DNA of 64,000 nucleotides from an uncultured virus (IMG/VR IMGVR_UViG_3300005673_000046) (Duplodnaviria; Heunggongvirae; Uroviricota; Caudoviricetes), in IMG/VR virus record IMGVR_UViG_3300005673_000046. One strand, given 5' to 3'. Both the position numbers and the translations under genes were made by a program. The notes under the pieces were generated by a model, which worked only from the letters and a program-made list of their open reading frames with translations, ran no database searches and was not told the DNA's origin. Shown piece by piece: positions 3,165-19,963 of the stretch. Numbering within the stretch: position 1 is the first letter of the stretch; each line of letters begins with the position of its first letter.

Positions 3165-3198
3165 TGCAACGACGATCTTTCCAGCTTGTGTTGCGTCA

Positions 3199-3384
3199 AT
3201 GAACAGCGCGGAGATGATGATTGCCATGGGCTACGGCGGCGCGGCGCTGCTCGCGCTCAATACGATCCTGTGGCTGCTGCTCGCCACCGATGCGTGGTGC
3301 CTGCGCAGGGCGGGACTCAACGCGGCGCTGGCGCTGCTGATGCTTGGCTATGGGCGCCTCGGAGAGTGGCTGACAGGTGTCTAA
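3199..3384 (+). CDS. small membrane protein
   Basis: 61 aa with two hydrophobic segments. Confidence 0.45.
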   Translation: MNSAEMMIAMGYGGAALLALNTILWLLLATDAWCLRRAGLNAALALLMLGYGRLGEWLTGV

Positions 3385-3544
3385 GAACCGCCCCAGAACC
3401 CGCATGAATGCTGGGTCGGGTTCGGCGGAATTCGTTAGACGAATCGGCCGCTAACCCGCATGGATGCTCACTTTCGCACCTGCCTTCTAAGCTGGTGCCC
3501 ATCCTATGGTGAGTGTCTAATTTTCGGCCGATTGTCTAATTTTC
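3378..3544. mobile_element. attP: attP region
   Basis: Core GCACCTGC-CTTCTAA-GCTGGTGC (3476-3498); arm-like repeats TGTCTAA at 3378, 3514, 3533 and inverted TTAGAC at 3435; repeat AACCCGCATG(A/G)ATGCT at 3397 and 3453; just downstream of int. Confidence 0.75.
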
Positions 3545-3619: not shown

Positions 3620-6600
3620 TCACTGCTCCTCCAGCTCGTACCCCTCGGCGCGCGCGCGCCGGCGCTCGACCTCTTGCCAGCGCCGGTCGATCTTGCGCAT
3701 CGCCTTGTCGATGGCGTCCTGCTCGGCCTCCCAGCGGTCATCCTCGGACAAGCCGCTGCGCTCCAGGCCGATGATGGTCCGCCGCAGCTGGGCTTCGATT
3801 TCCCGCAGCTCGGCGTTGATGCCCTGCATGAACAGGTATTCCTGCGTCTCCGGGGCGTAGCTGCCCAGCTTGACGCCGATGGCGCTGAAGAAGGCCTGCG
3901 CCAGCGATGCCTTCTCCTGGCCCAGCGGGCCGGGCTCGATGCGGCCGCGCCAGGCGTTCAGCAGGTTCTCGGTGCTGTAGGTGCCCGGCAGGCCTGGGAA
4001 GTTGGGCATCAGGCCCTTCCACAGGTGTTCGGCGCTGGCGCCCAGCTTCTCGCCGAGCTCGTCGGTGCGCAGCGTGATGTCGCGCCCGGTGAAGCCGGCG
4101 GTGTTGAGCATGAACTCGAAGAACAGCACGGCCGGGCCGCCCGGGATCAGCGGCGGCGGGATCGGGACGGCGGCGTTGCCTGTGCCCGTGTCCACGATGT
4201 CGCCCAGCGCCACCCAGCGCCGCACGTCCAGGAAGACGGGGTTGCCGTTGGCGTCGTTCCAGGGCATGCGCACCAGCTTCGGGGTCAGGAAGCCCCAGAT
4301 GCGCCCGGCCTTCTCGTCGGCCAGCCAGGCGCGTTCGCGCTCCTCGTCGCCGTCGTCGCCCAGCATCATGTAGGCCAGCGTGTTCAGCGACCCAGCGACC
4401 AGGCCGTACTTCATGAGCTTGTGCGGCTTGTCGACCGCGGTCTTCAGCATCATCGGCACCGCCCGGTAGGTGAAGGAGAAGAACGGCCAGACGGTGCGCC
4501 GCATCGCGTTGACCCACGGCGCGGAGATTTCGTAGTTGAGGAAAGAGTCGCGCGCGAACTTGCCGGCGTCGTGGTCACTGATGCCGTCCTCGCGCGCCTT
4601 GACGAAGGCGGCCAGGCGGAACACCACATCCTCGGCGCCGTACAGCTTGATGAGCTTGCGCGGCACCCAGGCCGCCGCGCGACCGACTGGCGCATCCTTC
4701 GCGGCCGCCAGCGCCTGGCGATACTCCCGGTGGCGCAGCAGGTCCATGACCTGGGCCGCGGTGATGAGCGATTGGCCGCCGGCGTCGCGCTCAATCTCGC
4801 GCCGCAGCTCCTCGAGCAGCGGCTTGTAAAGCTCCTCGCGGATTTCGACCTCGTTGAACATGCCGGCGTCGCCGCCGTTGTCCTCGAAGTCCTCCACCAG
4901 CTTCTTCATCTCCGGGTCGGAGCGCGCGGTGGCCATCGCCCTGAGCGCCAGGTACAGGTGCCGGCCCTGAATGTCGTGCATGTCCGCGAACAGCCAGTTG
5001 GCCATCACGTTGTTCATGTGTGTGACCGGACTCAGCGCGGTCTTGCTGATCTTCCAGAGCTTGAGCATGCTCTGCCACAGCCTGGACAGCTGCCCCTGGT
5101 CGGTGAACTGACCGATCTGGCGCAGCTCGTTCCAGACCGGCCCCGGCACCCAGCGGCCGGCCAGGTTGCCGAACGCGGTGACGTTGGTGCCCTTGATCTT
5201 GGTGCTCGGCACCTGGACCCACTCGTTCTTGAGGTAGCTGCGCGCCAGGAAGTAGCTGGCGTCGGCCTGCTTGGCCCCTGCCGGCAGGCGCGACTCGTCG
5301 GCGACTGACTCGTTGCGCGCGACCCAGTCCAGGAAGCGCGCCGTCTCGATGTCGCGCGTCATCTGCATCATGGTGGCCACGGTGGCGAACTTGACCTCCT
5401 GAATCTCGCCCATCTTCGTGCGCTCGGCCAGGGTGAAGTCGCGCCACATGCCGACCTTGTCCTTCTGGTCGAAGAACCGGGCTTCCCACAGGCCATCGTT
5501 GCGCCAGCCCAGCAGGTGTCGCGGGATCGGCACGTCCTCGGGCCAGTAGACGATCTGGCGGATGCGGCCCAGCGGCTGGCCGTTCTCGTCCTCGAACAGC
5601 TGCGGCGTGTCGTCGTCGCGCGGCTTGTCGCGCAGCTCCAGGCGGTGGAACTTCTGGCCCTTGAGCGAGGGATCGTGCGCGCCACTGTTGGTCTTGCGCT
5701 GCCACCAGTCGGCGGTCCCGATCTGCGCCATCGAGGCGTTGTCGCGCATGCCGCGGCCCTTGAGCGTGTCGCCCAGAATGCGGATCGACCGCGACTTGAC
5801 CTCGTTGGCCAGGCGCTCGTCGGCGGTGTGACGCTCGTAGCTGCGGTGCATGTACGCGAAGCGGTTGCGCTCGCGTGACTCGGCGCTGATGAGCCCCAGG
5901 CGCACGGCCTCATCGGACAGGTGCTCGATGTCCTGCTTGAGGCTGGCCAGCACGGCGCGCTGTCCTTCCGGCAGCGCGTCGAACAGGGCGGCCGCGGCGC
6001 GCATGGCCGGCTCGGCCCCGGGGTTCTCGGGGTTGGTGTTCATCCACAGGTACGCGACGCGCGACTGCTCCATCGTCAGGGCGCGGAGCTTGTCCACCGT
6101 CTCGCGGGTCTTGCGCGCGTTGACCCGGATCGCGGTGCGCATCGCGGTCTTGGCCTCGCTGAAGCCATCGCTCACGCCGTAGCGGTCCACCAGCCCGGCC
6201 TTGATGTATTCCCAGTAGTCGCCCATGTGACCGCCCAGGAAGGCGTCGGCCATCCTGCCGGCATGCACTGCCCCGGGGGCGACGACCTTCTTGATGAGCG
6301 CGTCGACCGGCGTGGCGACCAGCTGCACCGGCTTCTCGATGGCGTAGTTCACCAGGTCGAAGGCGCTGAATGGCGTCTCCATGGTCGCGCGCGGCAGCTT
6401 GAGGCTGATCGGGCGCAGCGACGGGGGCGCAGCGGCGGGCGGCGGCTGCTGGCTCAGCGCCGGCAGCTCGCCGCGGTCGACATGCGGCGTCGCCGCCACG
6501 GCGCGCCGGGCGGACATCAGCAGGTCGAAGGTTTCCGCCTCGGTCAGGCTCTCCAGCCAGTCGGCAATGGCCTTGCCGAACTCGCCGAACCGCTGGCGCA

Positions 6601-9600
6601 GGGCGCGCTGCAGGCTGGCCATCACGTAGCGCCAGGCCTTGGGCGCCGGCGCGCCGGCAGCGCGATCGGCCAGCGCCTCCTCCACCGCCAGCGCCTGAAC
6701 GGCCTGCTCGGCATCCTGCCGCGACATCCCCAGGCCGACCCTGGCCTGCACCTGCGCGGCGCCCCACTGGGCATGCCAGGCAGCCGCCTCGGTCGCCAGC
6801 GCAGGGTTGGCGGCGCGCAGCGCCAGCATCATCTGGGTGTAGCGGTCGCCCAGGAACGCGCGCAGGCCGAAGTGCCCGTAGACCTCGTGCCAGAGCACCC
6901 GCAGGCCCTCGTCGATGCTGCCGATCATGTCCGCGACGAGGAACACCCGGCCATCGGGCATCAGCAGCCCGCGCGTGCTGTTCAGCGCGCGCATGCGGCG
7001 CAGGTAGTCCTGGATGTCCGGCGGCAGCTCGGCGGCAGTGCGGGCAACGGCCACGACCGGCATGCCGGGCTCGCGCGACCAGTGCCTGGTGGCCTCGGCC
7101 ACGGCGGCGCCGAGCTTGTCCGGCGCGACGCCGGGGGCGTACTTGCTGCGCCGCTTCGTCGCCGGCTGCCCGGACATCACCGGCAGCCCGCCGCCGGGCT
7201 CGGTGCCGCGCTCGGCGGCCGAGGACATGCTGACCGGGTCGATCACGTCCAGCAGGCGGACGTCGGCCAGCGCCAGCGCGGCCTTGATGTTCTCCAGGGT
7301 GCGCTCGTCGTAGGCGCCGCCCGGGTTCATGACCAGCACCGTGCTGGCGGCCGCCTCGGCCGCCGAGTTGATGAGCCGGTCGTAGCGGTCATCCTGGCGA
7401 AGCCGGCCGGCCACAGCGGGCGCCAGCGGCACCCAGGCGGTGGGCTTGCTCTGGTAGTTCATGAACAGCAGGCCCGGCCGCGAGTCCGCCGCATGCAGCA
7501 CGAGCGCCTTGTCCTTGGCCTCTGCAGGCGAACCGATCACGCTGAGGCCGGTCTGGCGAGACTCGATGGTGCGCTCGACCACGGGCACCGTCGTCGTCGT
7601 GGTCGCGCTCGGCGTGACCACGCCGCTGTAGGTGCCGCCCTCCGGGGTGACGGCCATGAAGCGGGTGATCCCGTCATCGTCGGCCACCGCGGCCAGGCCG
7701 CGCCAGCGCACGGTCGACGGCTCGAAGGAGCGCGCCATCGCCTGGCTCAGGTTCTCGTCGGCACGCGACAGTTCGCTGCGGCCGCTGGGGTGGTTGTGGA
7801 CCGCCCATACCGAGTGCGCATCCTTGATGCGCATGGCCTCCATCAGCACGACGCCGGGATAGACCGAGGTCTGCGACGGAGCGCCCTTGAAAGCGCCGAT
7901 GATGGCCAGCGGGCGGCCGTTCTTGTCGGTGACGAGCGCGTCGAAGTGCTCGACGGCGTAGCGCGTCAGCGCGGAGAGGGCTGCGGCCGCCTCGTTCCAG
8001 TTGGTGACGCGAGCAACCGGCAGATCGTGCCGCCGGACTTCGACGAGCTGGCTGGTGACGTGGTAGATGCCGGGGAAGAACGGGTCTTCCCGCACAGATA
8101 CGGCGTTGGGGGCTGGTACGTTCCGACGCGGGGCGCGGCCGGCCCGAGGTGGATTTCCTCCTCGGGGATCGGGTAGCGGTTGTTCGAACAGGTCATAGTT
8201 GGCCTCGGGCTCGTTGACAGCGTACACCGCGCGCTCCTGCGCGGCAACGGGCGGCACGGGGAAGGCGTCCAGCACCATCTGCAGGCGGTGCAGTGCAACG
8301 AAGGTGCCCCCGTCCTTGTTGAAGACGAAGGACTCCGGCAGCGCGGCCTTCACCTGCTGCGCGTCGACGTGCCGCAGGATCACGCCGAGAATGAGCTTGC
8401 CCTGGCGCGTGGTGTGCCCGATGACCTCCAGCCCGTGCTTGGTCGCCAGCTCCTCGCCGCTGGTCCTGGCCTCGGCCTTGGCGGCCTTCTTCTTCTCGCG
8501 CTCCTGGCGCGCCTGGTCGGCCGGCGGCGCGGCACCGTCGACGCCTTCCTCGGCGCCTTCCTCGGCGCGCGGCTTCGTGCGCTCTGGCACGCCCAGGTTC
8601 TCGACCTCGCCGAACAGCTCGGCAATGTCCTGCGTGCCGGAGAAGTCGTACTCCACCGGCGCCGGCGCGGTCTGGTCCTTGCCCAGCTTGTCGATCACGA
8701 CGATGCGCGTGCGGACGCCGGTGCCGGCGCGCGCGAAAGCCACGCCAGGCAGCCGGATGGTGGCGACGACATGGGCGCCCGGCGCGATGGGCTCGGACTT
8801 CTTGCGCGGGCCGGACTCCTCCAGCTTGTCGATGGCCGAGCCGAGCACGGGTTCGATGCGCCCGGTGTCCTGCATCTTGGCCATGACGTGGGTGTCGTGG
8901 ACCTCGCGGACGTGCCCCACGCGTCCGTTGCGCAGCTCGATGCGGTCGTCGTAGAACAGCTCGGCCTCGCCGTCGGCGATGCGGGCAGTGCCCAGCGCCT
9001 TGATCGGCACGTCCTGGGTGCCGCGCAGGAACTTCTCCAGCCGCGCGTCGGCGGCCGGCCCCTCGGGCAGCAGCGCGACGATGCGGCCGCCCTCGAACAG
9101 GTGCTGGTTGTAGGCCTTGGCCAGGTGCTCGAAGGCCAGCTTGCCGCCACGCTCGAACGGCGGGTTCATGGCGATGCCCCAGGCCTTGTTGGCCGCGGGC
9201 AAGTCCTCGAAGCGGGTTTCGCGGATGTCGCCGTCGAAGACCATGGCCAGGCGCGAGGCCAGCACGGTGCTGGGCTCGACGGCCAGGCGATGGACGGTGT
9301 CGGGCAGCCAGCGCGCGATGGCGCCGTGGCCGGCGCTGGGCTCGATGGCGAGCTCGCCGGGCCGCAAGTCCAGCCACTGGACCATCTTCAGGCCGATGGG
9401 CTCGGGGGTGGGGTAATACTCGTGCCCCTCCTCGCTCTTGGTCTGCTGGTTCTTCTTGCGCTGGGCCCAGTACATGGACATGGCGCGGTCCCAGTCGCTG
9501 AGAATCTGCGCCATCTCGCGGTCGCGCGCCTTGCCCCCGGTGCCCTCGCCCTCGAAGCCTGGTGGCCAGTCGCCCGTGTCCTCGAAGGCCTCGATGTAGG

Positions 9601-12600
9601 CGTCGCGCAGCCCGCGCGCCATCTCGCCCAGGCCCAGGTTCTCGGCCGCCTCCGCGCGCTCGGCGATCTTCTCGGCGAAGGCCGCGCGCTCCCAGGACGT
9701 CTGGGTGTTGAAGTAGCGGAACATCGCGTTGGAGGCCTGCCCCACGCGGTAGATGCGGCCCTCCTGCTGGATCGAGCGCGTCGGGCGCACCGGCAGGCCC
9801 AGGTTGATGAGCACGCGCTGGTGCTTGCCCGTGGTGTCGTGGCCGCTCCAGCCCTTGTCCTTGTCGGCCTGCACGACGAGCAGCGCCGGGCCGGTGTCGT
9901 CGTCGTTGAACCAGTCGACGGCGGCGACCTTCTCCTTGTCGGAGATGCGGCCGTTGAGCACGCGCGCGCGGTCGGCGAAGTGCTCCATCATGGTCTGGAT
10001 GGGGCTCTTGAGCGTGTCCCACGGGTAGGTGACGAGGTCGTCGAACTCCTTGCGCCAGGCCTCCATCGCGGCGTAGGCCCAGGCGTCTTCCTGCGGGTTG
10101 AACTTGACGTTGAACGGGTCCAGGCGCTGGCCCTGGATCAGGTCGTGGAACAGCACGACCTTGCGGCCCAGCTCGAGCTGAGCGCGGATGTACGGCACAG
10201 CCGCCTCGGCCTTGATGGCCTCCAGCATGCGCATGCGGGTCAGGTAGTCGAACTCGCTGCGCAGCTTGCGGCTGGCCTTGTGGATGCCGGCGCGCAGCTT
10301 GTCGAGGCCGCTCTTGGGGTCTTTCTCGTACTCCTCGCGCGCGCCCTCGGTCAGGAACGGCAGCGCCTCGCTGGGGTCGGCTTCCCAGAACCACTGCAGG
10401 CCGCGGTCGATGCGCTGGCCGATGGCCGAATTGGCCGCGATGAACTTGCGGTCGTAGTCGAAATCCGACAGCAGCATCCGGCCGCGCAGCACGCCCTGGT
10501 TCTTGAGCCAGGTGTTGAACTGGCGCTGCATGATGCTGCTGTTGACCGACCACTCCGGCTTGGTCAGCTTGCCGTAGCGCATGCGCCAGCCGAAGTGCTG
10601 GATCATGAAGTTCTGGTAGGCGCTCGGCGCGTTGTAGCCGCGGCCCGGGACGAATCCCTCGTTCCAGTCGAACAGGTAGCCCTGCGCGATGACGGTGGAC
10701 TGCTCCCAGGCGAACGGCGTGGCCGACAGCATCAGCAGCCGCGTGCGGCCGGCGCCCTGCCCCTGCTCGATCAGCGACTCCTGCTGGACCTTCAGCTCGG
10801 CGAAGCGGCGCACCTTGGGCAGCAGCACCTTGTCGATTTCGGCCGCGGCGGCGTGGTTCTGCTTCTCCAGGTGCCCTGCCTGCTCGATGGTCAGCGCCAC
10901 GATTTCCGCGTACAGCTCGGGGTGCGCCATCTGGGTCCGCGTCTCGGCCGACTCCGGGTGCATGGTCAGCGCCCGGATGCGCAGGCCCGACTCGGTGATG
11001 GTGCCCTCCTGACTCTGGCCCATCTCGTGGACCTCGTCGGCGATGACCAGATCCCACCGGCGCTTGAGCAGCGCGTTGTTGTCGCGCAGGTTGGCGTAGG
11101 TCGTGACGACGACGCCCGTGCCGTGGTCCTTGGTGTTCTCCAGCGCCGTGACCTTGAGGCCCAGGTCCGGGCCGGAGCGCAGCCACCCTTCCAGGATGTT
11201 GCGGTCGGGCACGACGACGAGGATGGCGTCCTTGCCCTGCTTGGCGAACCGCTTGGCCACGCCCAGGCCGGTATAGGTCTTGCCGGTGCCGGTGCCGTTG
11301 GTGAACAGCATGCCGTAGCCGGTCGGCTGGGTCAGCCGCGCCTCGGCGTCGATGACATCCTGCTGCTGCTCGGGCAGCAGCATGGGCAGCGAGGCCCGGA
11401 TGTTCTCCTCGTCGTTGAGCTTGACGGGCAGCGCCTCGGCCTGGCGCTGCAGCTGGCGGCGCTTCAGGACATCGGCGGCGGTGCTTCGAGCAGCGTCCTC
11501 AACAGCCCCGTCTGAGATGGGGTCAGATGCCTTTCCTTGATCGCCAGCGAAATCGCCTCGTTGATCGTCAGCACTTCGGGCACCGTCTCGGCCCACTCGG
11601 GGTTGGCCTCCAGCACGCGGCCGATCGCCTGGCGTTCCTGCAGCAGGGGTGCCACTTCCAGGTACGCCAGCGCCACCATCGGATCGCTGACCCGGGCGCG
11701 CAGCGCGTCCCCCAGCTTGTCCGTTTCCGGCGGGAGGTCGCGCACGTCCATCGCCAGCAGGCGCTTCCACAGGGGCGTCTTGGCCAGCGGGGCGATCTGG
11801 CTGCGGAGTCGGTGGGGTGCGTACAGGAGCATCGGGGGCCTCCGTCAAGTCGGCCTTGGACTTCACCTGCGCCACCGTCATCAGGTCGTCGACGCTGCCG
11901 TCGGTGTAGCGGGCGGACATCGAAATGTACGCCCCCTGCAGATGCTTCAGGGTGAGGGATTCGGCGGCCTGGGGACCGATGAACTCGGCGACGTCGGCCA
12001 GCGCCTTCGCCGCGGCCTCGCGGAAGGTCCGCTTGCCCTCGATCACCGCGGCGTCCAGCAGCTCGGCCAGCACCGGCAGCAGCGCCTGCTCCTGCTCGCG
12101 CGTGAGCGCGGGCGGCGCTGGCTTGTCGCCATACTCCGGGCCGGGCTCCTCGGCCTTGGGCGGCCCGAAGATGTCGGACATGCGGCCCAGGGCGGTCAGG
12201 CGCTTCGTGCGCGCCTCGGCCTCGCGCTCCGGCGTCGGCGCGTTCTCGCTGCGGCCCAGCGGGCCTGCGGCGAACTCGCGGGCGTCCGGCCAGGTGGAGT
12301 GCCACCGCGGCGTCTCGCCAGGCTTGCGCACCCAGCGGTCGCCCTCCTTGACGACCTCCACGACCTTCACGGCCCAGCCTCCGGCCTCGGTCGCCGGCTG
12401 GAACTCCAGCACCTCGTCGAATCCAGCGTAGCCCTGCACGATGTTGCCGGGCGTGTAGTAGGCGCGCAGCCTCTCGAACTTGGCTTCGTACTCGGCCTCG
12501 GCCTTGTTGAGCCGGTCCACGCGCGGCCGACGGCCGGGCCCGATGTCGTCGAACCGATCTTGCGGGTCGCGCCTGGCGCGCTGCAACAGCCGCTTGAGCC

Positions 12601-15600
12601 GCTCGTCGATCAGGCGGACCTCGGCGGGCGTCAAGCCGCTGCTCACCAGCGGGCCGCGCACGCGCTGCGCAGCCAGGCGCTGCGCCAGCAGCGTCGCGCC
12701 AGCGTCGGTCGCCTCCTGGATCATGCCCCGCAACCGGCTATCGGCCTCCATGCGGGCGCGATCCGCTGGGCTGACCTTGGGCCCCTTCTTGGCCGGCGCC
12801 GGCGGTGCGACCGAGTCCTCCGGCCCGGACAGCTCGCCGTCCAGCGCGAAGGCCTGCACGGTGCCCGGCGCAAAGCGCGGGTCGTCCAGTGTGTAGGTGG
12901 TCTGCATGGCGCCGCCGCCCACGTTCAGCGACTTGACCGCCGTGACCTTGGTGCGCAGCGGCGGACCGTCGGGCTCGCCGTCCGGGGTGCGTGGCTGCCA
13001 GGTGACGGGGTCGCCACTGGCGAAGCGCGGACCAGCGGCCTCCAGCTCCGACCAGCGCAGCATGCGCGAGCCGCCGACCTCGAAGCGCACGATGGCGCCC
13101 TCGAAGGCCGGCCCGGGGCCGTAGAAGCTTTCGACATACCCGGGCTGCCCGGATGCGAGTTCGCGCACGCGCTGCAGCTTGCCGACGGGGGCGTAGCCGT
13201 CGACCTCGACGCCGTCCTTGAGGTAGCGCGCGACCTGGCGGAAGCCTTCGGGGATGGCCGGCTGCGCGTCGTCCTCCGGGAACGGCTTGCGGCCTTCGAC
13301 CGCGCGCTCGATCCAGTCACCCTGGATGCCCGGCGCGTTCTTCAGGGCCCGCACCGCGGCCAGCAGGCTCTTGCGTAGCTGCTCGCCGAGCCCGTCATCT
13401 GTCGGCCACAGGTCTTTCTGGCTGAGGGCCTGGATGCCGGTGTCTTGCACCTTGCGGCCACCGTCCCACTTCGATTCCTGGGTCTGCCACTGCTGCAGCC
13501 ATTGCGCCGCGGTCATGCCTTCGGGCTTGATCCTGTTGCTCTCCAGGCGATCGGCGCCGATCAGCTGAAACGCGCGGCCATAGTCGCGCAGGGCCGGATA
13601 GGCGGTGTTGAGCCAGTAGTCGCGGATGCGCTGGCGCGCCCCCTGCTGCTGGTCGTCAGCCGGCGCTGGCGTCGCCGCCGGTGGCGCGGCGGGCGGGTCG
13701 TAGGCGCTGATCGAGCCGAACAGGTCATCCGCGCCAGGCGCGGTCAGCGTGAAGTTGTCGCGGTCGGCGTCGGCGCGCGCGCGGTTCTCGCGCTCGGCGC
13801 GCTCGGCGGCCTCGCGGGCCAGGCGCTCGCGCTCGGCCCTGGCGTCGGCCTCCAGGCGGGCTTGCTCGTCCTCGGCGCGGCGGCGCAGCTCGGCCTCGTC
13901 GTAGGGTCGAAGCAGCGGGTCGGCTTCGCCTTGCTGCTCGTCGTCCAGCCACCAGTCGCGCCCAACCGCTGACGGGCGAGCGGCATCGAGAAGCTGCTGC
14001 GCGAAGTCCCGTTCCTCGGGCGTGTCCAGTCGAACGCTGCTGCGCGACCCCGCGACCTCGCCGTCGTAGCTCAGAACCTCGCCGTCAAGCCGAACGGCGT
14101 TCATCTTGCCCAAGACGGCGGTGATGAGCTGCCGCCTCGTGGCGGTTCCGATCTGGAGGCCGAGACGCGAATCGAACGCGCCGGCGGTGATCGGCTCGTC
14201 CAGGATGCTGCGCGCACCAGGCGCCGGCGCGTTCACGTCGCCATGCCGCTGCCATGGCCTGGTCAGGTCGATGTGTGCCTTGCGGTAGGCGTCGGCCAGG
14301 CGCTCGACGGGCTGGATCATGAACAGGGTCCGCATGCGCTCGACGCTGTTCTTCGGCGACAGCCGCAGGTTCGCGCCGATCAGGCGAACCTGCTCCTCGG
14401 TGAGCGCCGCGATGGAGCGGTCCACGGCATCGAGGAACCTGGCGCGGGCAACGTCCATGCCCGACTCGCGCGCCTCGCGGTCCTTGGCCCACTGCAGCGA
14501 CCGCTGGAGCTTGGCGAGCTGGCCCTTGCGCGACTTCAGCTGCTCGGCGGTGTAGGCATCCAGCAGCGCCTTGGCTTCCTTGCTGTGGCGCGCCCAGTGG
14601 TCGGGCCCCACGTAGGACTTCGGCGTCTGCGGCTTCAGGCGCTGCTCGGCCTCATGGCGGGCTCGCAGGTGCAGGATGCGGATGGCCCGCTCGATTTCCT
14701 CGACCGTGCGGCCGCCATCCGGCGGGCGCGGCGCAGGCGGGGCGGCCGCAGCCTGGTCGCCATCGGCCGGCAGGCCCGCCACGTACTGCTTGATCGCCCG
14801 GTTCATCTCCCCGGTGCCGCCGATGAACTCGCGCACCGAGGCGTCTTCGGGGATCGCACCGTCCTCGATGGCCTTGGCCACCGCGGCGCGCATCACGCGC
14901 CGGTAGTGCTCGCCGCCGACGATCTGGATGTCGCGCGGCATGGCGGCCAGCAGGCCCACCGGCAGCTCGCCGCTGGCGATCGAGGCCACCAGCTCGTCGG
15001 CGCGCTCGGCCGTCATCAGCTGGTCGTAGGGCTCGATCACCTGGTCGGGCCGCACGAAGCCGTGCTTGGCCGACAGGATGAACAGCCGCGGCGGGCTCTG
15101 CGCGCCCAGCGCCTTGCGGTAGGTGTTCCACAGCGGGCCGGTGTAGAAATCCTTGGCCGGCGTCGGCGCGCCGAGCTTCATCGCCCCGCATGGCATGAAC
15201 AGCCCGCACTCGTCGCGCAGGACATCGGGCGCACGCTCGCGCCCGTTGACGACCCGCGAGGCTAGGTCTTCGAGCCGCCGGACGGCTTCTTGACGACCAT
15301 CCCTCGGCGCAACCGCTCCAGGCGCAACAGGCGCTCCCTGTCCGCCGGGTCCATCTTGGCCAGCTTCAGCATCGCGTCGCGCTGCTTCTTGCTCTTGGGC
15401 GGCTTCCTTGGCCAGTTCATCGGCAATCTCCTGCTCGCTGAATCCCAGCGCGCGCATCTGGTCGGCCAGGGACTGCGGCGGCGCAGGCGCATCCCAGGCA
15501 ACGTCGTCGTCATCGAGCGCGTCGAGTTCAGCCGGCGTGATCCCGGCCTCCTCCATGATGGCACGGCGCTCGGCCTCGGCCTCGGCGGCCGCTTCCTCGT

Positions 15601-18600
15601 CCAGAGCCGGGTACAGCAGCTCCGGGTGGTTGTCCGCGAGCCACTGCTCGCGTTCCTGCGGCGTCATGGCCTCCCAGGCCTGGCGCTCTGCGTCCTCGTC
15701 GGCCTGATCCTCGGCCTGCTGTTCCGCGCGGGTCTTGGGCTCGTCGCGGTTGAGCGCACTCGTCACCAGTGCGCGTGCTGCCTCGTCGGCGGCCTTGTAG
15801 TCGGCCTCGTAGGAGCCGGGATCGAGGTAGCCCTCCTCCTCCATCCACAGCGCGAGCTCGTTGGTGTCGGCGATGCCGCCGTCGCGGAACAGGCCGCCGA
15901 TGCCGGAGACGGGCGGGTTGAACCAGCGCGCCACCGGGCGGCCGTTGCGGTCGCGGCCCAGCTCCTTCTTGAAGCTCAGATCGTGCAGCAGGCTCGGGTC
16001 GATGCCGCCGAGCTGCCGGCTGATTTCGGCGAGCATCCTGGAGCCCCAGACGGTGGCCGGATGCGAGCGCACGCCGGCAACGCGGCGCACGGCCTTGGGC
16101 GTCTCCTGCGGTTCATCCCAGCGCAGGTCGTCGACCGTGCGCTGTCCGATGGCCGCCTCGATCTTGGCGGCGATCTGCTCGGGCGTGTCGTCCTTCGCCT
16201 CGGTGTTGATCGAGCGCAGGAAAGCCTCGCCCGCGGGGGTGAGCTGCCGCTTGATCGGGTGGACGAGGTCGGCCTTGCGCAGCGCCTCCAGCACGCTCAA
16301 GTCCGCGCTGGCCGTCAAGGCGCCGTTCATCATGTCGACCAGCGTGTTCAGCACCGCGCCGCCCTTCCACGGCTCCTTGCGCTGCACGCGCGTCGGCGGC
16401 TTGACGCCGGTGACTTCCTCGACCCACTTGGCGATGGCGCGCGCCTGCTGGCGCTGGCGCTCGCTCGCCAGGCTGCCGGTGGCCTCCAGGATGTTGAACG
16501 CGCTGCGCTGCAGGCTGCGCCCGGCAGCGCGCAGCGCGTCCTCGCGGGTGGGGAAGGTGTCGACCACGCTGGGCGAGCTGCTGCCGCCGCTCATCGAGCC
16601 GCCGGTGGTGTTGTAGTGGCTGCCCGGCGCCCAGGTGCCGTCTTCCAGCTCGACCAGGCTGATGTCCGCCTTGACGCCCTTGGCCTGGCCCTTGGGGGCC
16701 GGCATGACCAGCGTCGTCATGTCCGGGGTGCTGTCCGGGACGAAGACGCCGTGGTCGTTCGGCGCGTGGCCGCCCTTCGTGCGGATGCGGGGCCTGCCTT
16801 CGGGCGTCGGAGCGAGGGGTGCGGCGCCGGCCGGCGTTCCTGGCCCGCCAGGGACGCTACCCGATGAAGCCTCCTCGACAGGCCCCGGCGGCGCCGCGGG
16901 CACATTGTCGCGCACCGGCTGGCCGAGGATGCCCCCGAGGCTTTCTAGGGCCTTCCGGCGCTTCTCGGCGGCGGCGCTGGGGGCCTGCGGCGGCGCCGCG
17001 GGAGGCGGCGCGGCCGGCTCCGGTGTGGCCTGCTCGACCTGGCTGGCCAGGTCTTCGCGGTTGGCGGCGAACTTGGCCGCCAGAGCCTCGGCATGGCGGT
17101 CGCCGAACTCGTTGCCGTACTCCGCGAGGATGCCCTCGATGTCGCGCAGCGCGCTGCGCGCCGCGCCGCGCATCGTCTCGATGTCCTCGGGCTTGGCCGG
17201 CTTGCCGGTTTCGGGATTGGTGCCGGTGCGCAGCGCGTCCAGCAGCATGTTGGCTGCGGCCAGGTCGGTCTGGATGCGGCCGACCACCTGCTGGTGCGTG
17301 TCGCGCACGGCCTGCGTCAGGTAGACGGGGTCGTCCTCCAGGCCCTCGAACATCGAGTTGCGGCCGGCCGCGGCCAGCTCGTCGAACTGCGGACGCGGGT
17401 AGGTCTTCTCGTAGTCCGGCGTGTCGCTCAGTGCAGCGTCCTGAAGTCCAGCTCCAGGCTGGGCGCTTCCGGCTCCCGGTCTGCCAGTATCGCCATCGCC
17501 GGGTGCAGGCGCTCCGGGAACATCGCCAGCGGGATTGACTCCCCCGGGTACAGCAGCATCCGGTCCCAGATTTCCGCCGCCTCGGCCAGCGTTATCGAGC
17601 ACTCCAGGACCGGCTCCACCAGGAACCGCGGGAGCAGCTGCCACGTCAGACTGGTCATCGAATCCCTCCTTGAAGGCTGGCGAGAACGGCGCCTTGTGGT
17701 TGCCGGTCTTGATCCAGTCCTTGAACATCGGCATGTCCATGCCGCTCAGGTAGCCCAGGCCCCGCCAGTCGGGCGTGTAGTTGGCGCGGTAGGCGGCCTC
17801 GGCCTCTTGCGGGCTGGCGAAGCCCAGCATGACCTTGTGCTCGTCGAACTTCCCGGTGCGCGGGTCGCGCTGGTCGATCACGAAGACCGGGCCGTCGTAG
17901 TCGGGCGGCGTGCCGGGCTTGATGAAGGTGTCGACGTGGTCGCCGTCCTTGCCTTCGGTGCCGCGGATGTAGCCGTAGTGCGACTGGACCGTGTTCTCCC
18001 AAGGCTTCCCGTCGGGGTCCACGCCGCGGCGCACCGAGCCCTGCGGGTTCTCGATGCTGATGTCCAGGCCGCCCAGGCGGATGTGGCCCTTCTTGTAGTT
18101 GCCGGCCTCCTTCTGCGGGTCGGTCGGCTCCGGGAGGTCGTTGGTCGGGCTCGTGGCGGCGCCGTGCGCCGCGTCGTCGACCGGGGTGCCCAGTAGCGCG
18201 CCGGCGTCCATCGGCGCGTCCGGGTTCGCTGGCGGCGATGCGGCGGCGGCCGGCGGTGCGGCGGCGGTGCGCGGCTGCACCGGAATCTGCGGCGTGATGC
18301 CGGGCCGCTGGCCGAAGTCTGGCGGCAGGGGCGGGAGGTCGCCCATCGTGGGCTCGCGGCGCTCGGGCGCCGGCGCGCCGCCGCGGCCGCCGGTGCGCAG
18401 GCGGCCGATGGCCGCGCCGCCGGCCTGCATGACGCCGGTGGCGATGAAGGTCTGGACCGCGGTGTCGCGCATCGACTCCAGGAAGCCAGCGACCGTGATG
18501 TCCTCGTCCAGGCCGAGCTTGGTCCCGTCCACCAGGTACTGGCCGGCGCTGGTGATCTGCTCGCCGATGCCCTCACCGACCTGGCCGCGCACGACCTGGC

Positions 18601-19963
18601 CGACGCCGGCCGAGAACAGCCCGCGCCTCTCCAGCGCGACGACCGCGCGCTCGGCCCACTGCGGCAGCTCCTCCAGCGTCTTCTTCGCGGCCTGGCCGCG
18701 CAGCGCGTTCATGGCGGCCGGGATGAGGCCGTACCGCTCGCCGATGTACTCCAGAGCGCCCATGATGGCCGCCCGGCCGGCGGCGTGTGACGGCGCCAGG
18801 CCCTCGATGCGGCCTTGGATGAACTCCTGGCCGAAGACCTGGGTGCCCATGATCCCCATGGCCACGCGGGCGCCGGCCATCGGGTTCTTGGTCAGCACCG
18901 TCGTCGCCGCGCCGGCGCCCATGGCCGGCAGCATCTGGCCGACCGAGTTCATGGCGCCCACGCCCATTCGCTCGAGGTAGGCCGCCGGGGAAACCCCGAG
19001 CACGCCCATCTCCTCGGCGCGCTGGCGGATGGTCAGCAGCTCGTTGGCGGCATCGACCTTGACCTGCGCGCGCTTGCCCTCCTTCTCGTAGAGCTTGGCG
19101 CCCTCCTCGTCGCCGAGGGCGCGCAGCGCCATGGCCATGCCGCCCTGGACGGACTGCTTCAGGCCCTGGCCGGCGGCGAACAGGCCGCGCTGCGCGATGC
19201 CGGAGTCCTTGAGCTGCGCGCCCTCGGCCTTGGCCGCTGCCTCCTCCTCCAGGGAAAGCGGCGAGTCGATCGCCTTGGCCTGGCCGGGCAGCACGGTCAG
19301 CCCGCCCTGCAGCGCCTGGTTGCCGGCTACGCCGGCCGCCACGTCGCCGCGCATGCCGCCCTCGATCAGCCGCTCTGCGCGCGCCTCCATCGGGGCGTCC
19401 GGCGTCTGCACGCCGGTCGTCTCCTGCAGCTTGGCGTCGGCATCGAGCTGGCGCACCGCCTCGGTCATCGCCGTGCGCATCCAGGCCGGCAGGTCTTCGC
19501 GGGCGAGCTGGGCCCGGCGCACCTGCGGCGGCATGGCCCCGAGCTGGGCCTTCAGCGCCGCGAAAGCCTCCTTCGACAGCGGCGACGGGCGGCGCAGGCC
19601 GGGCTTGACCGGGTTCTGGTCGGAGTGATCTGCGAGCGTGGCGTCCGGCGCTGGCGGCGAGGCGATCTGCTGCGCCGCGGTGGTCATCTCGTCGGCGATG
19701 TTCCCGCCTGGCGGCTCCTGGCTGGGGCTCGTCACCCGGTCGACGACCTGGCCGAGCGCCTGCGCGGTTCGCTCGCCCATGGACAGCTTGCGCGGCGGCG
19801 GCGCGGGCGGCGGGTTCTTGTCCCAGCCGTAGATCGCATCCCACTCCTGCGGCGAAAGCTGGCCACGGCGCTGCTTGCCCCCCTTCTGGGGGGCGGGGGG
19901 TTCGGGGTGCGGCTTGGTTTCGACCGCGTCGTAGATGCTGTCCCAGTCGACCTGGTTGCTCAT
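3620..19963 (-). CDS. giant polyvalent (DarB-like) protein, 5447 aa: PPase-like, DUF6884-like, SF2 helicase, N6-adenine MTase, JAB/RadC and zincin metallopeptidase domains
   Basis: AGNYKKGH..ENPQGS..HYGYI..DGDHVD; CGAMK..YTGP..ILSAKHG; GTGTGKT, DEVH, QQEGRIYRVGQ; EPSAGHG and NPPF; HNHPSG..SRAD; HEVYGHFGL..EEALA. Confidence 0.92.
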   Translation of the reverse strand: MSNQVDWDSIYDAVETKPHPEPPAPQKGGKQRRGQLSPQEWDAIYGWDKNPPPAPPPRKLSMGERTAQALGQVVDRVTSPSQEPPGGNIADEMTTAAQQIASPPAPDATLADHSDQNPVKPGLRRPSPLSKEAFAALKAQLGAMPPQVRRAQLAREDLPAWMRTAMTEAVRQLDADAKLQETTGVQTPDAPMEARAERLIEGGMRGDVAAGVAGNQALQGGLTVLPGQAKAIDSPLSLEEEAAAKAEGAQLKDSGIAQRGLFAAGQGLKQSVQGGMAMALRALGDEEGAKLYEKEGKRAQVKVDAANELLTIRQRAEEMGVLGVSPAAYLERMGVGAMNSVGQMLPAMGAGAATTVLTKNPMAGARVAMGIMGTQVFGQEFIQGRIEGLAPSHAAGRAAIMGALEYIGERYGLIPAAMNALRGQAAKKTLEELPQWAERAVVALERRGLFSAGVGQVVRGQVGEGIGEQITSAGQYLVDGTKLGLDEDITVAGFLESMRDTAVQTFIATGVMQAGGAAIGRLRTGGRGGAPAPERREPTMGDLPPLPPDFGQRPGITPQIPVQPRTAAAPPAAAASPPANPDAPMDAGALLGTPVDDAAHGAATSPTNDLPEPTDPQKEAGNYKKGHIRLGGLDISIENPQGSVRRGVDPDGKPWENTVQSHYGYIRGTEGKDGDHVDTFIKPGTPPDYDGPVFVIDQRDPRTGKFDEHKVMLGFASPQEAEAAYRANYTPDWRGLGYLSGMDMPMFKDWIKTGNHKAPFSPAFKEGFDDQSDVAAAPAVPGGAGPGVLDNAGRGGGNLGPDAAVPGGVNPAGDVPGAPAPGDGDTGRPGAGSAQPGAGLQDAALSDTPDYEKTYPRPQFDELAAAGRNSMFEGLEDDPVYLTQAVRDTHQQVVGRIQTDLAAANMLLDALRTGTNPETGKPAKPEDIETMRGAARSALRDIEGILAEYGNEFGDRHAEALAAKFAANREDLASQVEQATPEPAAPPPAAPPQAPSAAAEKRRKALESLGGILGQPVRDNVPAAPPGPVEEASSGSVPGGPGTPAGAAPLAPTPEGRPRIRTKGGHAPNDHGVFVPDSTPDMTTLVMPAPKGQAKGVKADISLVELEDGTWAPGSHYNTTGGSMSGGSSSPSVVDTFPTREDALRAAGRSLQRSAFNILEATGSLASERQRQQARAIAKWVEEVTGVKPPTRVQRKEPWKGGAVLNTLVDMMNGALTASADLSVLEALRKADLVHPIKRQLTPAGEAFLRSINTEAKDDTPEQIAAKIEAAIGQRTVDDLRWDEPQETPKAVRRVAGVRSHPATVWGSRMLAEISRQLGGIDPSLLHDLSFKKELGRDRNGRPVARWFNPPVSGIGGLFRDGGIADTNELALWMEEEGYLDPGSYEADYKAADEAARALVTSALNRDEPKTRAEQQAEDQADEDAERQAWEAMTPQEREQWLADNHPELLYPALDEEAAAEAEAERRAIMEEAGITPAELDALDDDDVAWDAPAPPQSLADQMRALGFSEQEIADELAKEAAQEQEAARRDAEAGQDGPGGQGAPVAPGAVAPRDGRQEAVRRLEDLASRVVNGRERAPDVLRDECGLFMPCGAMKLGAPTPAKDFYTGPLWNTYRKALGAQSPPRLFILSAKHGFVRPDQVIEPYDQLMTAERADELVASIASGELPVGLLAAMPRDIQIVGGEHYRRVMRAAVAKAIEDGAIPEDASVREFIGGTGEMNRAIKQYVAGLPADGDQAAAAPPAPRPPDGGRTVEEIERAIRILHLRARHEAEQRLKPQTPKSYVGPDHWARHSKEAKALLDAYTAEQLKSRKGQLAKLQRSLQWAKDREARESGMDVARARFLDAVDRSIAALTEEQVRLIGANLRLSPKNSVERMRTLFMIQPVERLADAYRKAHIDLTRPWQRHGDVNAPAPGARSILDEPITAGAFDSRLGLQIGTATRRQLITAVLGKMNAVRLDGEVLSYDGEVAGSRSSVRLDTPEERDFAQQLLDAARPSAVGRDWWLDDEQQGEADPLLRPYDEAELRRRAEDEQARLEADARAERERLAREAAERAERENRARADADRDNFTLTAPGADDLFGSISAYDPPAAPPAATPAPADDQQQGARQRIRDYWLNTAYPALRDYGRAFQLIGADRLESNRIKPEGMTAAQWLQQWQTQESKWDGGRKVQDTGIQALSQKDLWPTDDGLGEQLRKSLLAAVRALKNAPGIQGDWIERAVEGRKPFPEDDAQPAIPEGFRQVARYLKDGVEVDGYAPVGKLQRVRELASGQPGYVESFYGPGPAFEGAIVRFEVGGSRMLRWSELEAAGPRFASGDPVTWQPRTPDGEPDGPPLRTKVTAVKSLNVGGGAMQTTYTLDDPRFAPGTVQAFALDGELSGPEDSVAPPAPAKKGPKVSPADRARMEADSRLRGMIQEATDAGATLLAQRLAAQRVRGPLVSSGLTPAEVRLIDERLKRLLQRARRDPQDRFDDIGPGRRPRVDRLNKAEAEYEAKFERLRAYYTPGNIVQGYAGFDEVLEFQPATEAGGWAVKVVEVVKEGDRWVRKPGETPRWHSTWPDAREFAAGPLGRSENAPTPEREAEARTKRLTALGRMSDIFGPPKAEEPGPEYGDKPAPPALTREQEQALLPVLAELLDAAVIEGKRTFREAAAKALADVAEFIGPQAAESLTLKHLQGAYISMSARYTDGSVDDLMTVAQVKSKADLTEAPDAPVRTPPTPQPDRPAGQDAPVEAPAGDGRARPPAGNGQAGGRAARPGQRSDGGAGVPGSGTPAAGTPGDRPRAGGQPRVGRDGARSADDQRGDFAGDQGKASDPISDGAVEDAARSTAADVLKRRQLQRQAEALPVKLNDEENIRASLPMLLPEQQQDVIDAEARLTQPTGYGMLFTNGTGTGKTYTGLGVAKRFAKQGKDAILVVVPDRNILEGWLRSGPDLGLKVTALENTKDHGTGVVVTTYANLRDNNALLKRRWDLVIADEVHEMGQSQEGTITESGLRIRALTMHPESAETRTQMAHPELYAEIVALTIEQAGHLEKQNHAAAAEIDKVLLPKVRRFAELKVQQESLIEQGQGAGRTRLLMLSATPFAWEQSTVIAQGYLFDWNEGFVPGRGYNAPSAYQNFMIQHFGWRMRYGKLTKPEWSVNSSIMQRQFNTWLKNQGVLRGRMLLSDFDYDRKFIAANSAIGQRIDRGLQWFWEADPSEALPFLTEGAREEYEKDPKSGLDKLRAGIHKASRKLRSEFDYLTRMRMLEAIKAEAAVPYIRAQLELGRKVVLFHDLIQGQRLDPFNVKFNPQEDAWAYAAMEAWRKEFDDLVTYPWDTLKSPIQTMMEHFADRARVLNGRISDKEKVAAVDWFNDDDTGPALLVVQADKDKGWSGHDTTGKHQRVLINLGLPVRPTRSIQQEGRIYRVGQASNAMFRYFNTQTSWERAAFAEKIAERAEAAENLGLGEMARGLRDAYIEAFEDTGDWPPGFEGEGTGGKARDREMAQILSDWDRAMSMYWAQRKKNQQTKSEEGHEYYPTPEPIGLKMVQWLDLRPGELAIEPSAGHGAIARWLPDTVHRLAVEPSTVLASRLAMVFDGDIRETRFEDLPAANKAWGIAMNPPFERGGKLAFEHLAKAYNQHLFEGGRIVALLPEGPAADARLEKFLRGTQDVPIKALGTARIADGEAELFYDDRIELRNGRVGHVREVHDTHVMAKMQDTGRIEPVLGSAIDKLEESGPRKKSEPIAPGAHVVATIRLPGVAFARAGTGVRTRIVVIDKLGKDQTAPAPVEYDFSGTQDIAELFGEVENLGVPERTKPRAEEGAEEGVDGAAPPADQARQEREKKKAAKAEARTSGEELATKHGLEVIGHTTRQGKLILGVILRHVDAQQVKAALPESFVFNKDGGTFVALHRLQMVLDAFPVPPVAAQERAVYAVNEPEANYDLFEQPLPDPRGGNPPRAGRAPRRNVPAPNAVSVREDPFFPGIYHVTSQLVEVRRHDLPVARVTNWNEAAAALSALTRYAVEHFDALVTDKNGRPLAIIGAFKGAPSQTSVYPGVVLMEAMRIKDAHSVWAVHNHPSGRSELSRADENLSQAMARSFEPSTVRWRGLAAVADDDGITRFMAVTPEGGTYSGVVTPSATTTTTVPVVERTIESRQTGLSVIGSPAEAKDKALVLHAADSRPGLLFMNYQSKPTAWVPLAPAVAGRLRQDDRYDRLINSAAEAAASTVLVMNPGGAYDERTLENIKAALALADVRLLDVIDPVSMSSAAERGTEPGGGLPVMSGQPATKRRSKYAPGVAPDKLGAAVAEATRHWSREPGMPVVAVARTAAELPPDIQDYLRRMRALNSTRGLLMPDGRVFLVADMIGSIDEGLRVLWHEVYGHFGLRAFLGDRYTQMMLALRAANPALATEAAAWHAQWGAAQVQARVGLGMSRQDAEQAVQALAVEEALADRAAGAPAPKAWRYVMASLQRALRQRFGEFGKAIADWLESLTEAETFDLLMSARRAVAATPHVDRGELPALSQQPPPAAAPPSLRPISLKLPRATMETPFSAFDLVNYAIEKPVQLVATPVDALIKKVVAPGAVHAGRMADAFLGGHMGDYWEYIKAGLVDRYGVSDGFSEAKTAMRTAIRVNARKTRETVDKLRALTMEQSRVAYLWMNTNPENPGAEPAMRAAAALFDALPEGQRAVLASLKQDIEHLSDEAVRLGLISAESRERNRFAYMHRSYERHTADERLANEVKSRSIRILGDTLKGRGMRDNASMAQIGTADWWQRKTNSGAHDPSLKGQKFHRLELRDKPRDDDTPQLFEDENGQPLGRIRQIVYWPEDVPIPRHLLGWRNDGLWEARFFDQKDKVGMWRDFTLAERTKMGEIQEVKFATVATMMQMTRDIETARFLDWVARNESVADESRLPAGAKQADASYFLARSYLKNEWVQVPSTKIKGTNVTAFGNLAGRWVPGPVWNELRQIGQFTDQGQLSRLWQSMLKLWKISKTALSPVTHMNNVMANWLFADMHDIQGRHLYLALRAMATARSDPEMKKLVEDFEDNGGDAGMFNEVEIREELYKPLLEELRREIERDAGGQSLITAAQVMDLLRHREYRQALAAAKDAPVGRAAAWVPRKLIKLYGAEDVVFRLAAFVKAREDGISDHDAGKFARDSFLNYEISAPWVNAMRRTVWPFFSFTYRAVPMMLKTAVDKPHKLMKYGLVAGSLNTLAYMMLGDDGDEERERAWLADEKAGRIWGFLTPKLVRMPWNDANGNPVFLDVRRWVALGDIVDTGTGNAAVPIPPPLIPGGPAVLFFEFMLNTAGFTGRDITLRTDELGEKLGASAEHLWKGLMPNFPGLPGTYSTENLLNAWRGRIEPGPLGQEKASLAQAFFSAIGVKLGSYAPETQEYLFMQGINAELREIEAQLRRTIIGLERSGLSEDDRWEAEQDAIDKAMRKIDRRWQEVERRRARAEGYELEEQ
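7966..8196 (-). CDS. possible nested +1-frame ORF (76 aa)
   Basis: GAGG 6 nt before ATG; MTCSNNRYPIPEEEIHLG...; the distal half looks like frame shadow. Confidence 0.35.
   Translation of the reverse strand: MTCSNNRYPIPEEEIHLGPAAPRVGTYQPPTPYLCGKTRSSPASTTSPASSSKSGGTICRLLASPTGTRRPQPSPR
11464..11832 (-). CDS. nested +1-frame gene inside the giant gene (122 aa)
   Basis: GGAGG 6 nt before ATG; Leu/Glu/Ala-rich helical composition; host frame is a low-complexity linker here. Confidence 0.75.
   Translation of the reverse strand: MLLYAPHRLRSQIAPLAKTPLWKRLLAMDVRDLPPETDKLGDALRARVSDPMVALAYLEVAPLLQERQAIGRVLEANPEWAETVPEVLTINEAISLAIKERHLTPSQTGLLRTLLEAPPPMS
15262..15420 (-). CDS. nested +1-frame gene (52 aa, basic)
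   Basis: AGGAG 7 nt before ATG; MNWPRKPPKSKKQRDAMLKLAKMDPADRERLLRLERLRRGMVVKK. Confidence 0.6.
   Translation of the reverse strand: MNWPRKPPKSKKQRDAMLKLAKMDPADRERLLRLERLRRGMVVKKPSGGSKT
17428..17658 (-). CDS. nested +1-frame gene (76 aa)
   Basis: AGGAGG 6 nt before ATG; MTSLTWQLLPRFLVEPVLECSITLAEAAEIWDRMLLYP. Confidence 0.72.
   Translation of the reverse strand: MTSLTWQLLPRFLVEPVLECSITLAEAAEIWDRMLLYPGESIPLAMFPERLHPAMAILADREPEAPSLELDFRTLH

Follow-up and report, generated by a model that had tools for sequence, protein, structure and literature searches.

A 122-codon reading frame within a giant phage virion-protein gene is probably a conserved embedded gene

The 64,000-nucleotide stretch of DNA analyzed here in full (the window), taken from an uncultured virus of the Caudoviricetes (IMG/VR record IMGVR_UViG_3300005673_000046), carries a giant open reading frame (ORF) for a DarB-like polyvalent virion protein and, inside it, read from the same strand but in another frame, an ORF of 122 codons situated immediately before the part that encodes a superfamily 2 (SF2) helicase. 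The locus raises the question of whether the short frame is a gene in its own right or one of the open stretches that occur in DNA of such high GC content. Comparative analyses and structure prediction led us to conclude, with a probability of roughly 0.88, that this ORF is a real and conserved embedded gene, that it belongs to a large unnamed family and that the DNA it occupies is a dual-coding stretch. The elements on which the argument rests are the following:

11464..11832, minus strand: the embedded gene (P0001), 122 aa, in the +1 frame relative to the giant gene (ORF list and translation)
11839..11843, minus strand: Shine-Dalgarno (SD)-like GGAGG, 6 nt upstream of the nested ATG (sequence)
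11845..11847, minus strand: nested-frame TGA four codons before the ATG, which shuts this frame ahead of the start (sequence)
3620..19963, minus strand: the host gene, a DarB-like polyvalent virion-protein ORF of 5447 aa (ORF list, translation and Pfam)
9599..11377, minus strand: the part of the giant protein (residues ~2863-3455) that holds the SF2 helicase, just downstream of the embedded gene (ResIII match)

The embedded gene runs on the minus strand from an ATG at 11830-11832 to a TGA stop at 11464-11466, and its translation contains the peptides quoted in the original prediction, which had described a nested, helical 122-aa protein from the sequence alone. It spans residues 2711-2834 of the giant protein, so that it does occupy the pre-helicase linker to which it had been assigned, the ResIII match starting at about residue 2863. 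The proposed start signal, a GGAGG separated by six nucleotides from an ATG, is likewise present as described; in the giant frame, the GGAGG element is read as part of the codons ACG GAG GCC. The length of the embedded ORF is by itself unremarkable, because the giant gene, with a GC content of 71%, has 30 other same-strand, shifted-frame open stretches of at least 100 aa, the longest of them of 492 aa. A promoter scan of positions 11200-12700 found none, and shuffled sequence gave none either.

Base composition sets this stretch apart from the rest of the giant gene. The GC contents at the first, second and third codon positions (GC1, GC2 and GC3) were 0.72, 0.46 and 0.87 for the embedded gene read in its own frame, compared to 0.72, 0.49 and 0.92 for the giant gene overall. 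Within the giant frame, GC3 falls to 0.40-0.57 and GC1 rises to about 0.9 at gene offsets ~8070-8460 (residues ~2700-2820). This switch in the codon phase of the GC signal is sharp and coincides with the nested ATG and the nested stop, and the same switch was observed in two of the related loci, L005 and L007.

Loci for comparison were drawn from metagenomes, IMG/VR and GenBank phages, and 14 non-redundant ones were compared, with genome GC contents of 0.45-0.71 and open giant frames of 2740 to 5447 codons (335 codons on the 1-kb contig L006). A hidden Markov model (HMM) of the family matched the six-frame translations of 17 of 18 loci, with E values of 1e-32 to 1e-45. The exception was L001, a weak candidate with 29% identity over 52 residues in a tblastn search of genome contigs, which was dropped, as the family HMM gave no confirmation. 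In all 14 loci the embedded ORF lies in the +1 frame relative to the giant ORF, is 120-139 aa long and stands directly before the 'LFTNGTGTGKT' helicase. Six of the carriers are cultured phages, namely Pseudomonas Skulduggery, Serratia Parlo, Klebsiella vB_KpnP_ZX1, Ruegeria 45A6, Vibrio D274 and Vibrio 1.232.O, and at the site of the embedded gene the records of all six annotate only the giant coding sequence. In Vibrio D274, with a GC content of 46%, the nested ORF is the longest shifted-frame stretch within the giant gene. Scans of viral contigs with P0007 as the query returned five loci; those with P0001, the Skulduggery copy, P0049 and P0045 gave no match, and no plasmid match was obtained. 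On one IMG/VR contig (L010, giant ORF at 8286..16859), the giant frame opens just 238 codons upstream of the embedded gene; its long N-terminal part is there a separate ORF or absent, and the embedded arrangement before the helicase is unchanged.

The nested start is an ATG in 13 of the 14 loci and a GTG in the remaining one, and an SD-like motif was found 6-9 nt upstream of it in 12 loci, compared to a background of 113 out of 994 (11%) for the other shifted-frame ATGs of the same giant ORFs. Upstream of the start, the nested frame is open for merely 2-4 codons in the window, in ZX1, in Parlo and in both Vibrio phages.

A programmed +1 ribosomal frameshift would make a different use of this arrangement, as its product would be a shortened N-terminal protein that ends in the helical domain, and not a free 122-aa protein. 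The +1 relation and the position at a domain boundary would permit two products per message, and an SD-like element near the shift site has a precedent in prfB, where such an element lies a few bases upstream of the +1 shift. Nevertheless, we regard a frameshift as quite improbable: the stop that precedes the ATG by 2-4 codons in the five phages just named confines any shift site to a few codons, which are not conserved between loci, the start codon coincides with the N-terminal edge of the conserved domain in every locus, and most family proteins begin with a methionine at that column. Since the nested frame is almost closed upstream and the codons there are unconserved, independent internal initiation is the simplest reading.

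The two frames differ in how well their amino acid sequences are preserved. Over the 91 possible pairs of loci, the mean amino acid identity was 0.364 for the nested frame, 0.235 for the giant frame and 0.258 for the unused third frame, and the nested frame was more similar than the giant frame in 90 of the 91 pairs. Nucleotide differences, when sorted by codon position of the nested frame, were most frequent at position 3, followed by position 1 and then by position 2. By these alignments, the amino acid sequence that is preserved is that of the small protein, and the giant frame is conserved no better than a non-coding frame. Several motifs of the giant-frame linker recur across loci (...VEPD..., ...GVP.../...RVS.DG... 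and ...ERGD...); they mirror the WNQI, AY..APLL and ENEAI segments of the small protein and appear to be by-products of nested-frame conservation.

These comparisons also bear on whether the ORF might be the relic of a domain that once formed part of the giant polyprotein in frame, was displaced by compensated indels or assembly errors, and is now silent. A codon-phase signature could persist after a recent double frameshift, and in-frame N-terminal fusions of the domain are known, such as the 557-aa protein P0049 described below. This explanation is nonetheless very improbable, more so than a frameshift during translation. The out-of-frame state is common to all 14 loci, whose nested proteins are on average 36% identical, which indicates that it is ancient and neither a recent event nor an assembly error, and a silent sequence would not retain its amino acid sequence, start codon and SD motif. 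A search for longer in-frame fusions, which is weak evidence, returned P0045 only and no giant protein.

The giant frame, in turn, is maintained in a different manner. Two further features are needed to describe it:

11849..12106, minus strand: a conserved helical module, giant residues ~2620-2705, ending ...LKHLQGAYISMS... (giant-frame alignment of 12 loci)
11486..11920, minus strand: a low-complexity linker rich in proline, glycine, alanine and arginine, giant residues ~2682-2826 (giant-frame translation and AlphaFold2)

In an AlphaFold2 model of giant residues 2615-3480, built on an alignment of 7 sequences only, the predicted local distance difference test score (pLDDT) was below 50 for model residues 68-212, with means of 23-34 for blocks of 10 residues, and model residues 91-203 had no secondary structure; over the DNA of the embedded gene, the giant frame scored about 25. 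The helical module upstream of the linker has its helices at model residues 8-73; pLDDT values were about 55-68 for this flanking module and about 80-94 for the helicase core, whose GTGKT motif is invariant in the alignment of the same residues (A5).

Despite its low complexity, the giant frame contains no stop across the overlap in any of the 14 loci, whereas 0.9-12.7 stops would be expected, and the third frame contains 3-19. The expectation was obtained from 3000 resamples in which the small protein of each locus was re-encoded according to the codon usage of the giant gene at that locus. In the three GC-richest loci, the giant frame would stay open by chance with probabilities of 0.39, 0.32 and 0.24, the first value being that of the window, where about 0.9 stops are expected over the overlap. 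The corresponding probability was at most 0.06 in the other 11 of the 14 loci, with 0 open frames in 3000 resamples in four of them. A giant frame that is free of stops against this expectation indicates that the synonymous choices in the small gene are constrained to keep it open. Judging from these counts, the overlap is dual-coding in the true sense, and the giant ORF is no artefact.

The same counts bear on the proposal that the region holds three separate genes, an upstream one, the small one and a helicase gene, and that the 5447-aa ORF is an artefact of annotation in which the overlap is open but not meaningfully translated. Over the overlap, the giant frame is of low complexity, is predicted to be disordered and is no better conserved than the third frame, and in the window it might be open by chance. 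We consider this proposal no likelier than that of a silent relic, because the upstream part has no terminating stop, so that a ribosome translating it cannot terminate there, because no conserved start codon for the helicase part is found near the nested stop, and because the lack of giant-frame stops extends to all 14 loci against the numbers expected.

A word-indexed search with P0001 retrieved P0003 (120 aa, 57% identical) and P0005 (121 aa, 48% identical). The absence of homologues that had been named in advance as grounds for rejecting the ORF is contradicted by the family profile, which was seeded with three sequences, P0001 among them: it matched 396 of 1.84 billion cluster representatives (50% identity) at E ≤ 1e-3 and 180 at E ≤ 1e-10. 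Among the 150 matches listed, most cover the full length, at about 115-130 aa. P0001, itself a seed, matches the profile over residues 3-122 at an E value of 3.7e-58, and all core residues of the family (P62, L63, E66, A69, P85, E92, A93, L103, L111 and L115) are present in it. NCBI nr and other collections contain the exact 122-aa sequence, labeled a 'hypothetical protein' and located on short contigs, which indicates that gene callers detect the small gene where the giant ORF is truncated. By its full-length match P0001 is placed in the family, as a member divergent at the N-terminal W-N motif considered below. One sequence, P0004 (150 aa), was kept out of the alignments as a probable chimeric assembly; its first 55 residues are identical to P0001 and are followed by sequence of the histidine-phosphatase type (PF00300, His_Phos_1-type).

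AlphaFold2, run with an alignment of 88 sequences, predicted a compact seven-helix bundle for the small protein, with a mean pLDDT of 96.4 and a predicted template modeling score (pTM) of 0.89. The view that the nested frame encodes a globular helical protein is strongly supported by its composition, by its conservation and by this predicted fold. The family is mildly acidic, with a median isoelectric point of 5.1 and a net charge of -4, and its best-conserved positions are mostly hydrophobic or proline/alanine, together with E66 and E92; the small protein may accordingly resemble a binding module more than an enzyme.

Neither the fold nor the sequence led to a known family. Foldseek searches of the model against PDB and BFVD returned nothing at E ≤ 0.001, and the best Z score of VIA-align against 48,161 chains was 4.6, below the chance level for helical models; the RecX chain 3e3v_A, with a Z score of 4.0 over 51 residues, is within the noise of such models. 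Searches of eight family members against NCBIfam and PADLOC gave no match, with only sub-threshold RecX, MsbA-related and HisI rows, of which RecX reached a weak E value of 0.018 and 14.8 bits against a cutoff of 237 in one of the eight. No match was obtained with Pfam for 25 long family members, nor in a profile search of PDB sequences (best E value of 0.016). In the ESM Atlas, scores were at most 0.90, to clusters of small hypothetical and anti-sigma-like proteins, and lie within the stated chance range.

The domain was also observed in longer predicted proteins. In P0023, P0028, P0029, P0045 and P0122 (391-563 aa), the ~120-aa domain forms the N-terminus; the first four have another conserved stretch in common (...VYRPRP...LAVEQ...VRAER.RR.G...), a hydrophobic segment lies close to the C-terminus in several of the five, and in P0023, P0045 and P0122 this segment is followed by a coiled-coil-like tail. 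The 563-aa P0028 joins the small domain to a module of the HLQGAYISMS type, which resembles the module found ahead of the embedded gene in the window; as evidence from fusion for an interaction this protein was set aside, because it stands alone as a prediction, comes from high-GC DNA and has a long middle part of low complexity. In P0049 (557 aa, MBP2641197.1), from a contig of 95,751 bases in a metagenome-assembled genome of a low-GC organism of the Bacillota, the domain is fused in frame to a long, acidic, repeated C-terminal extension, so that the domain exists outside the embedded arrangement too.

With these results in hand, the possibility that the 122-codon ORF is a chance, non-coding frame in 71% GC DNA, to which the 30 other shifted-frame stretches of up to 492 aa and the 11% of shifted-frame ATGs preceded by an SD-like motif regardless would lend some credit, is already refuted by the homologues (396 family representatives), the confident fold, the locus profile matches and the conservation of the frame. 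That frame is open at the same place in all 14 loci, even at a GC content of 45%, and in Vibrio D274 no other shifted-frame stretch of the giant gene is longer; it is better conserved than the giant frame in all but one of the 91 pairs, and it carries the codon-phase switch.

If the ORF is indeed an embedded gene, ribosomes would most likely use the internal GGAGG-6 nt-ATG of the giant late mRNA as an independent start site, and translation of the nested frame would give a compact seven-helix protein of about 120 aa that ends just before the helicase-coding part. In the giant frame, the same DNA would provide a disordered linker that joins the small helical module to the SF2 helicase-methyltransferase. 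By the comparisons above, selection acts on the nested frame for its amino acid sequence and on the giant frame mainly for the absence of stops. Re-initiation that would yield a separate helicase protein is not indicated, since there is no conserved giant-frame start near the nested stop. The small gene may be the older of the two readings, because it is the ordered and conserved frame and the one that carries the codon signature, and the linker would then have been overprinted on it when neighboring genes fused.

The host gene is of a recognizable kind. The window, with a GC content of about 70%, contains the structural module of a temperate phage, with an integrase, the small and large terminase subunits, the portal, the major head protein, an internal virion protein, tail fibers and RecT, and the 5447-aa ORF stands at the end of this module, after the tail-fiber and virion-protein genes. 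Pfam matches in the giant protein comprise InPase, DUF6884, a ResIII-type SF2 helicase (E value of 7.6e-12) and a RadC-like JAB domain, together with a Helicase_C_4 match that stays under its curated cutoff. An NPPF motif of N6-adenine methyltransferases can be read directly from the translation; the Pfam search of the giant protein gave no methylase model at E ≤ 0.01. GenBank relatives of the gene carry the annotation 'DarB-like antirestriction', and the combination of an SF2 helicase and a methyltransferase in one protein of the virion module qualifies it as a DarB-like polyvalent virion protein.

The closest parallel in genetic organization is provided by phage lambda, where Rz1 lies in the +1 frame of Rz. 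As in Rz1/Rz, the locus described here appears to have a complete gene with its own start inside another late gene of the same strand, the two being read in different frames, and in relatives both frames remain open: the ORF lies wholly inside its host, its start and ribosome-binding site are its own as far as the sequence tells, and both frames are maintained. In contrast to Rz1/Rz, the host frame here encodes a predicted disordered linker within the 5447-aa virion protein, what is embedded is a predicted soluble seven-helix domain of about 120 aa and neither a lipoprotein nor the product of a lysis gene, and an interaction between the two products is only conjectured. Two-component spanin genes of the embedded class occur in many phages, with lambda Rz1 in Rz as the standard case (PMC6139136 and PMC5295617). 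Overprinting in viruses in general, by which one stretch of DNA specifies two proteins, is reviewed in PMC8227390 and PMC6195259.

The likeness to overprinting of the phiX174 type, where E lies in D and B in A and where K is a further case, consists in two proteins from two frames with selection on both. In textbook overprinting, disorder tends to be found in the embedded protein, which is the younger of the two. Here, on the contrary, the embedded protein is predicted to be ordered, is better conserved and bears the codon signature of the genome, while the host frame would be the disordered by-product.

With regard to function, the nearest model comes from phage P1, whose DarB antirestriction system requires the small proteins Ulx, DdrA and Hdf (as given in part of PMC9144972, citing Piya et al. 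2017). According to the same part of that source, a Bcep22-like DarB-like giant protein is virion-associated, and no homologues of Ulx, Hdf and DdrA were found there. The three P1 proteins share with the small protein that they are small and are encoded alongside a giant virion protein of the helicase-methylase type, and their part in the P1 system offers a functional model for a helper; unlike in our window, the genes of Ulx, DdrA and Hdf are separate and not embedded, and the domain order of P1 DarB differs. Bcep22 gp75, another DarB-like giant gene, contains no member of the embedded family. The host gene shares with the DarB-like and other polyvalent proteins its many domains, the helicase-methylase dyad and its place in the virion module. 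The embedded gene, however, is not part of the polyvalent-protein architecture as described in the accessible text of the survey PMC5512222, in which the terms 'frameshift', 'overlapping' and 'linker' are absent. No description of the embedded gene was found in the literature within reach, which did not extend to subscription journals and supplements.

Several observations weigh against the interpretation of the ORF as an embedded gene with a role beside the giant protein. Support for it is comparative or predicted throughout, and the homologues in the databases were predicted by gene callers, for the most part on short contigs, so that they show conservation and not expression. The N-terminal tryptophan and asparagine, which are present in 82% and 86% of 88 family members and rank among the best-conserved residues at that end, are replaced in P0001 by R10 and S11. 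Two loci depart from the common start signal, as L007 has a GTG without an SD-like motif and L010 an ATG without one. P0001 has no PHROG or Pfam match that would tie it to a function, and the embedded family has no similarity to P1 Ulx, DdrA and Hdf by hhalign, in which its alignment (A3) gave probabilities of 0.12%, 0.10% and 0.22%, respectively, so that kinship to them was rejected. Finally, the order of events, with an older gene and an overprinted linker, is putative, and none of the relatives examined was found to carry the upstream, small and helicase genes unfused.

As to what the product does, we tentatively suggest, at less than even odds, that it works together with the giant protein, for instance by serving the neighboring helicase-methylase as an adaptor or chaperone or by regulating it. 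The idea, already put forward with the original prediction, draws on position, the embedded ORF being found directly before the helicase in 14 of 14 loci. The complex predicted for the small protein and giant residues 2615-3480 had a score of 0.00, which speaks neither for nor against binding. The rest of the odds is shared between an independent anti-defense effector and other roles. A more far-reaching version, in which giant polyvalent genes fused across a pre-existing small gene, the alternative frame of which became the flexible linker although the small gene remained whole and was still translated, and in which the product is a new all-alpha helper that loads, restrains or packages the helicase-methylase, we hold to be speculative and rather unlikely.

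The giant gene contains a second candidate of the same kind:

17428..17658, minus strand: P0159, 76 codons, in the +1 frame, just after the InPase domain (AAGGAGG-6 nt-ATG)

Over this stretch, at gene offsets ~2260-2500, GC3 of the giant frame falls to 0.40 with the same sharp switch. A counterpart was found only in the closest relative, L005, where it has a GTG start, and the two are 49% identical in the nested frame, compared to 36% and 34% in the giant and third frames, respectively; a database search returned no homologue of P0159. The case for a second embedded gene is suggestive but thin. The GC3 signal of the giant gene is also weakened at 15148..15793, 13768..14098 and 8008..8308 on the minus strand; these stretches are Glu/Ala/Arg- or Gly/Pro/Ala-rich sequence of low complexity, with no alternative frame of normal signature.

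Taken as a real gene, the ORF would be one that annotation has missed in complete phage genomes, and, to our knowledge, the pipelines used for complete genomes do not allow a gene to lie fully inside another on the same strand. Its family, which is large and without a match to a known family or fold, would represent a considerable portion of phage 'dark matter' that is consistently tied to a helicase-methylase of the anti-restriction type. The overlap itself would be of an unusual sort, in which the embedded reading is ordered and conserved and the linker of the host is a by-product, and this suggests a route by which giant multidomain proteins could be assembled without loss of the intervening gene. 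If such fusion across a gene did take place, it would, together with P0159, be a sign that the linkers of giant phage proteins generally harbor small genes as a 'second layer' that annotation has missed.

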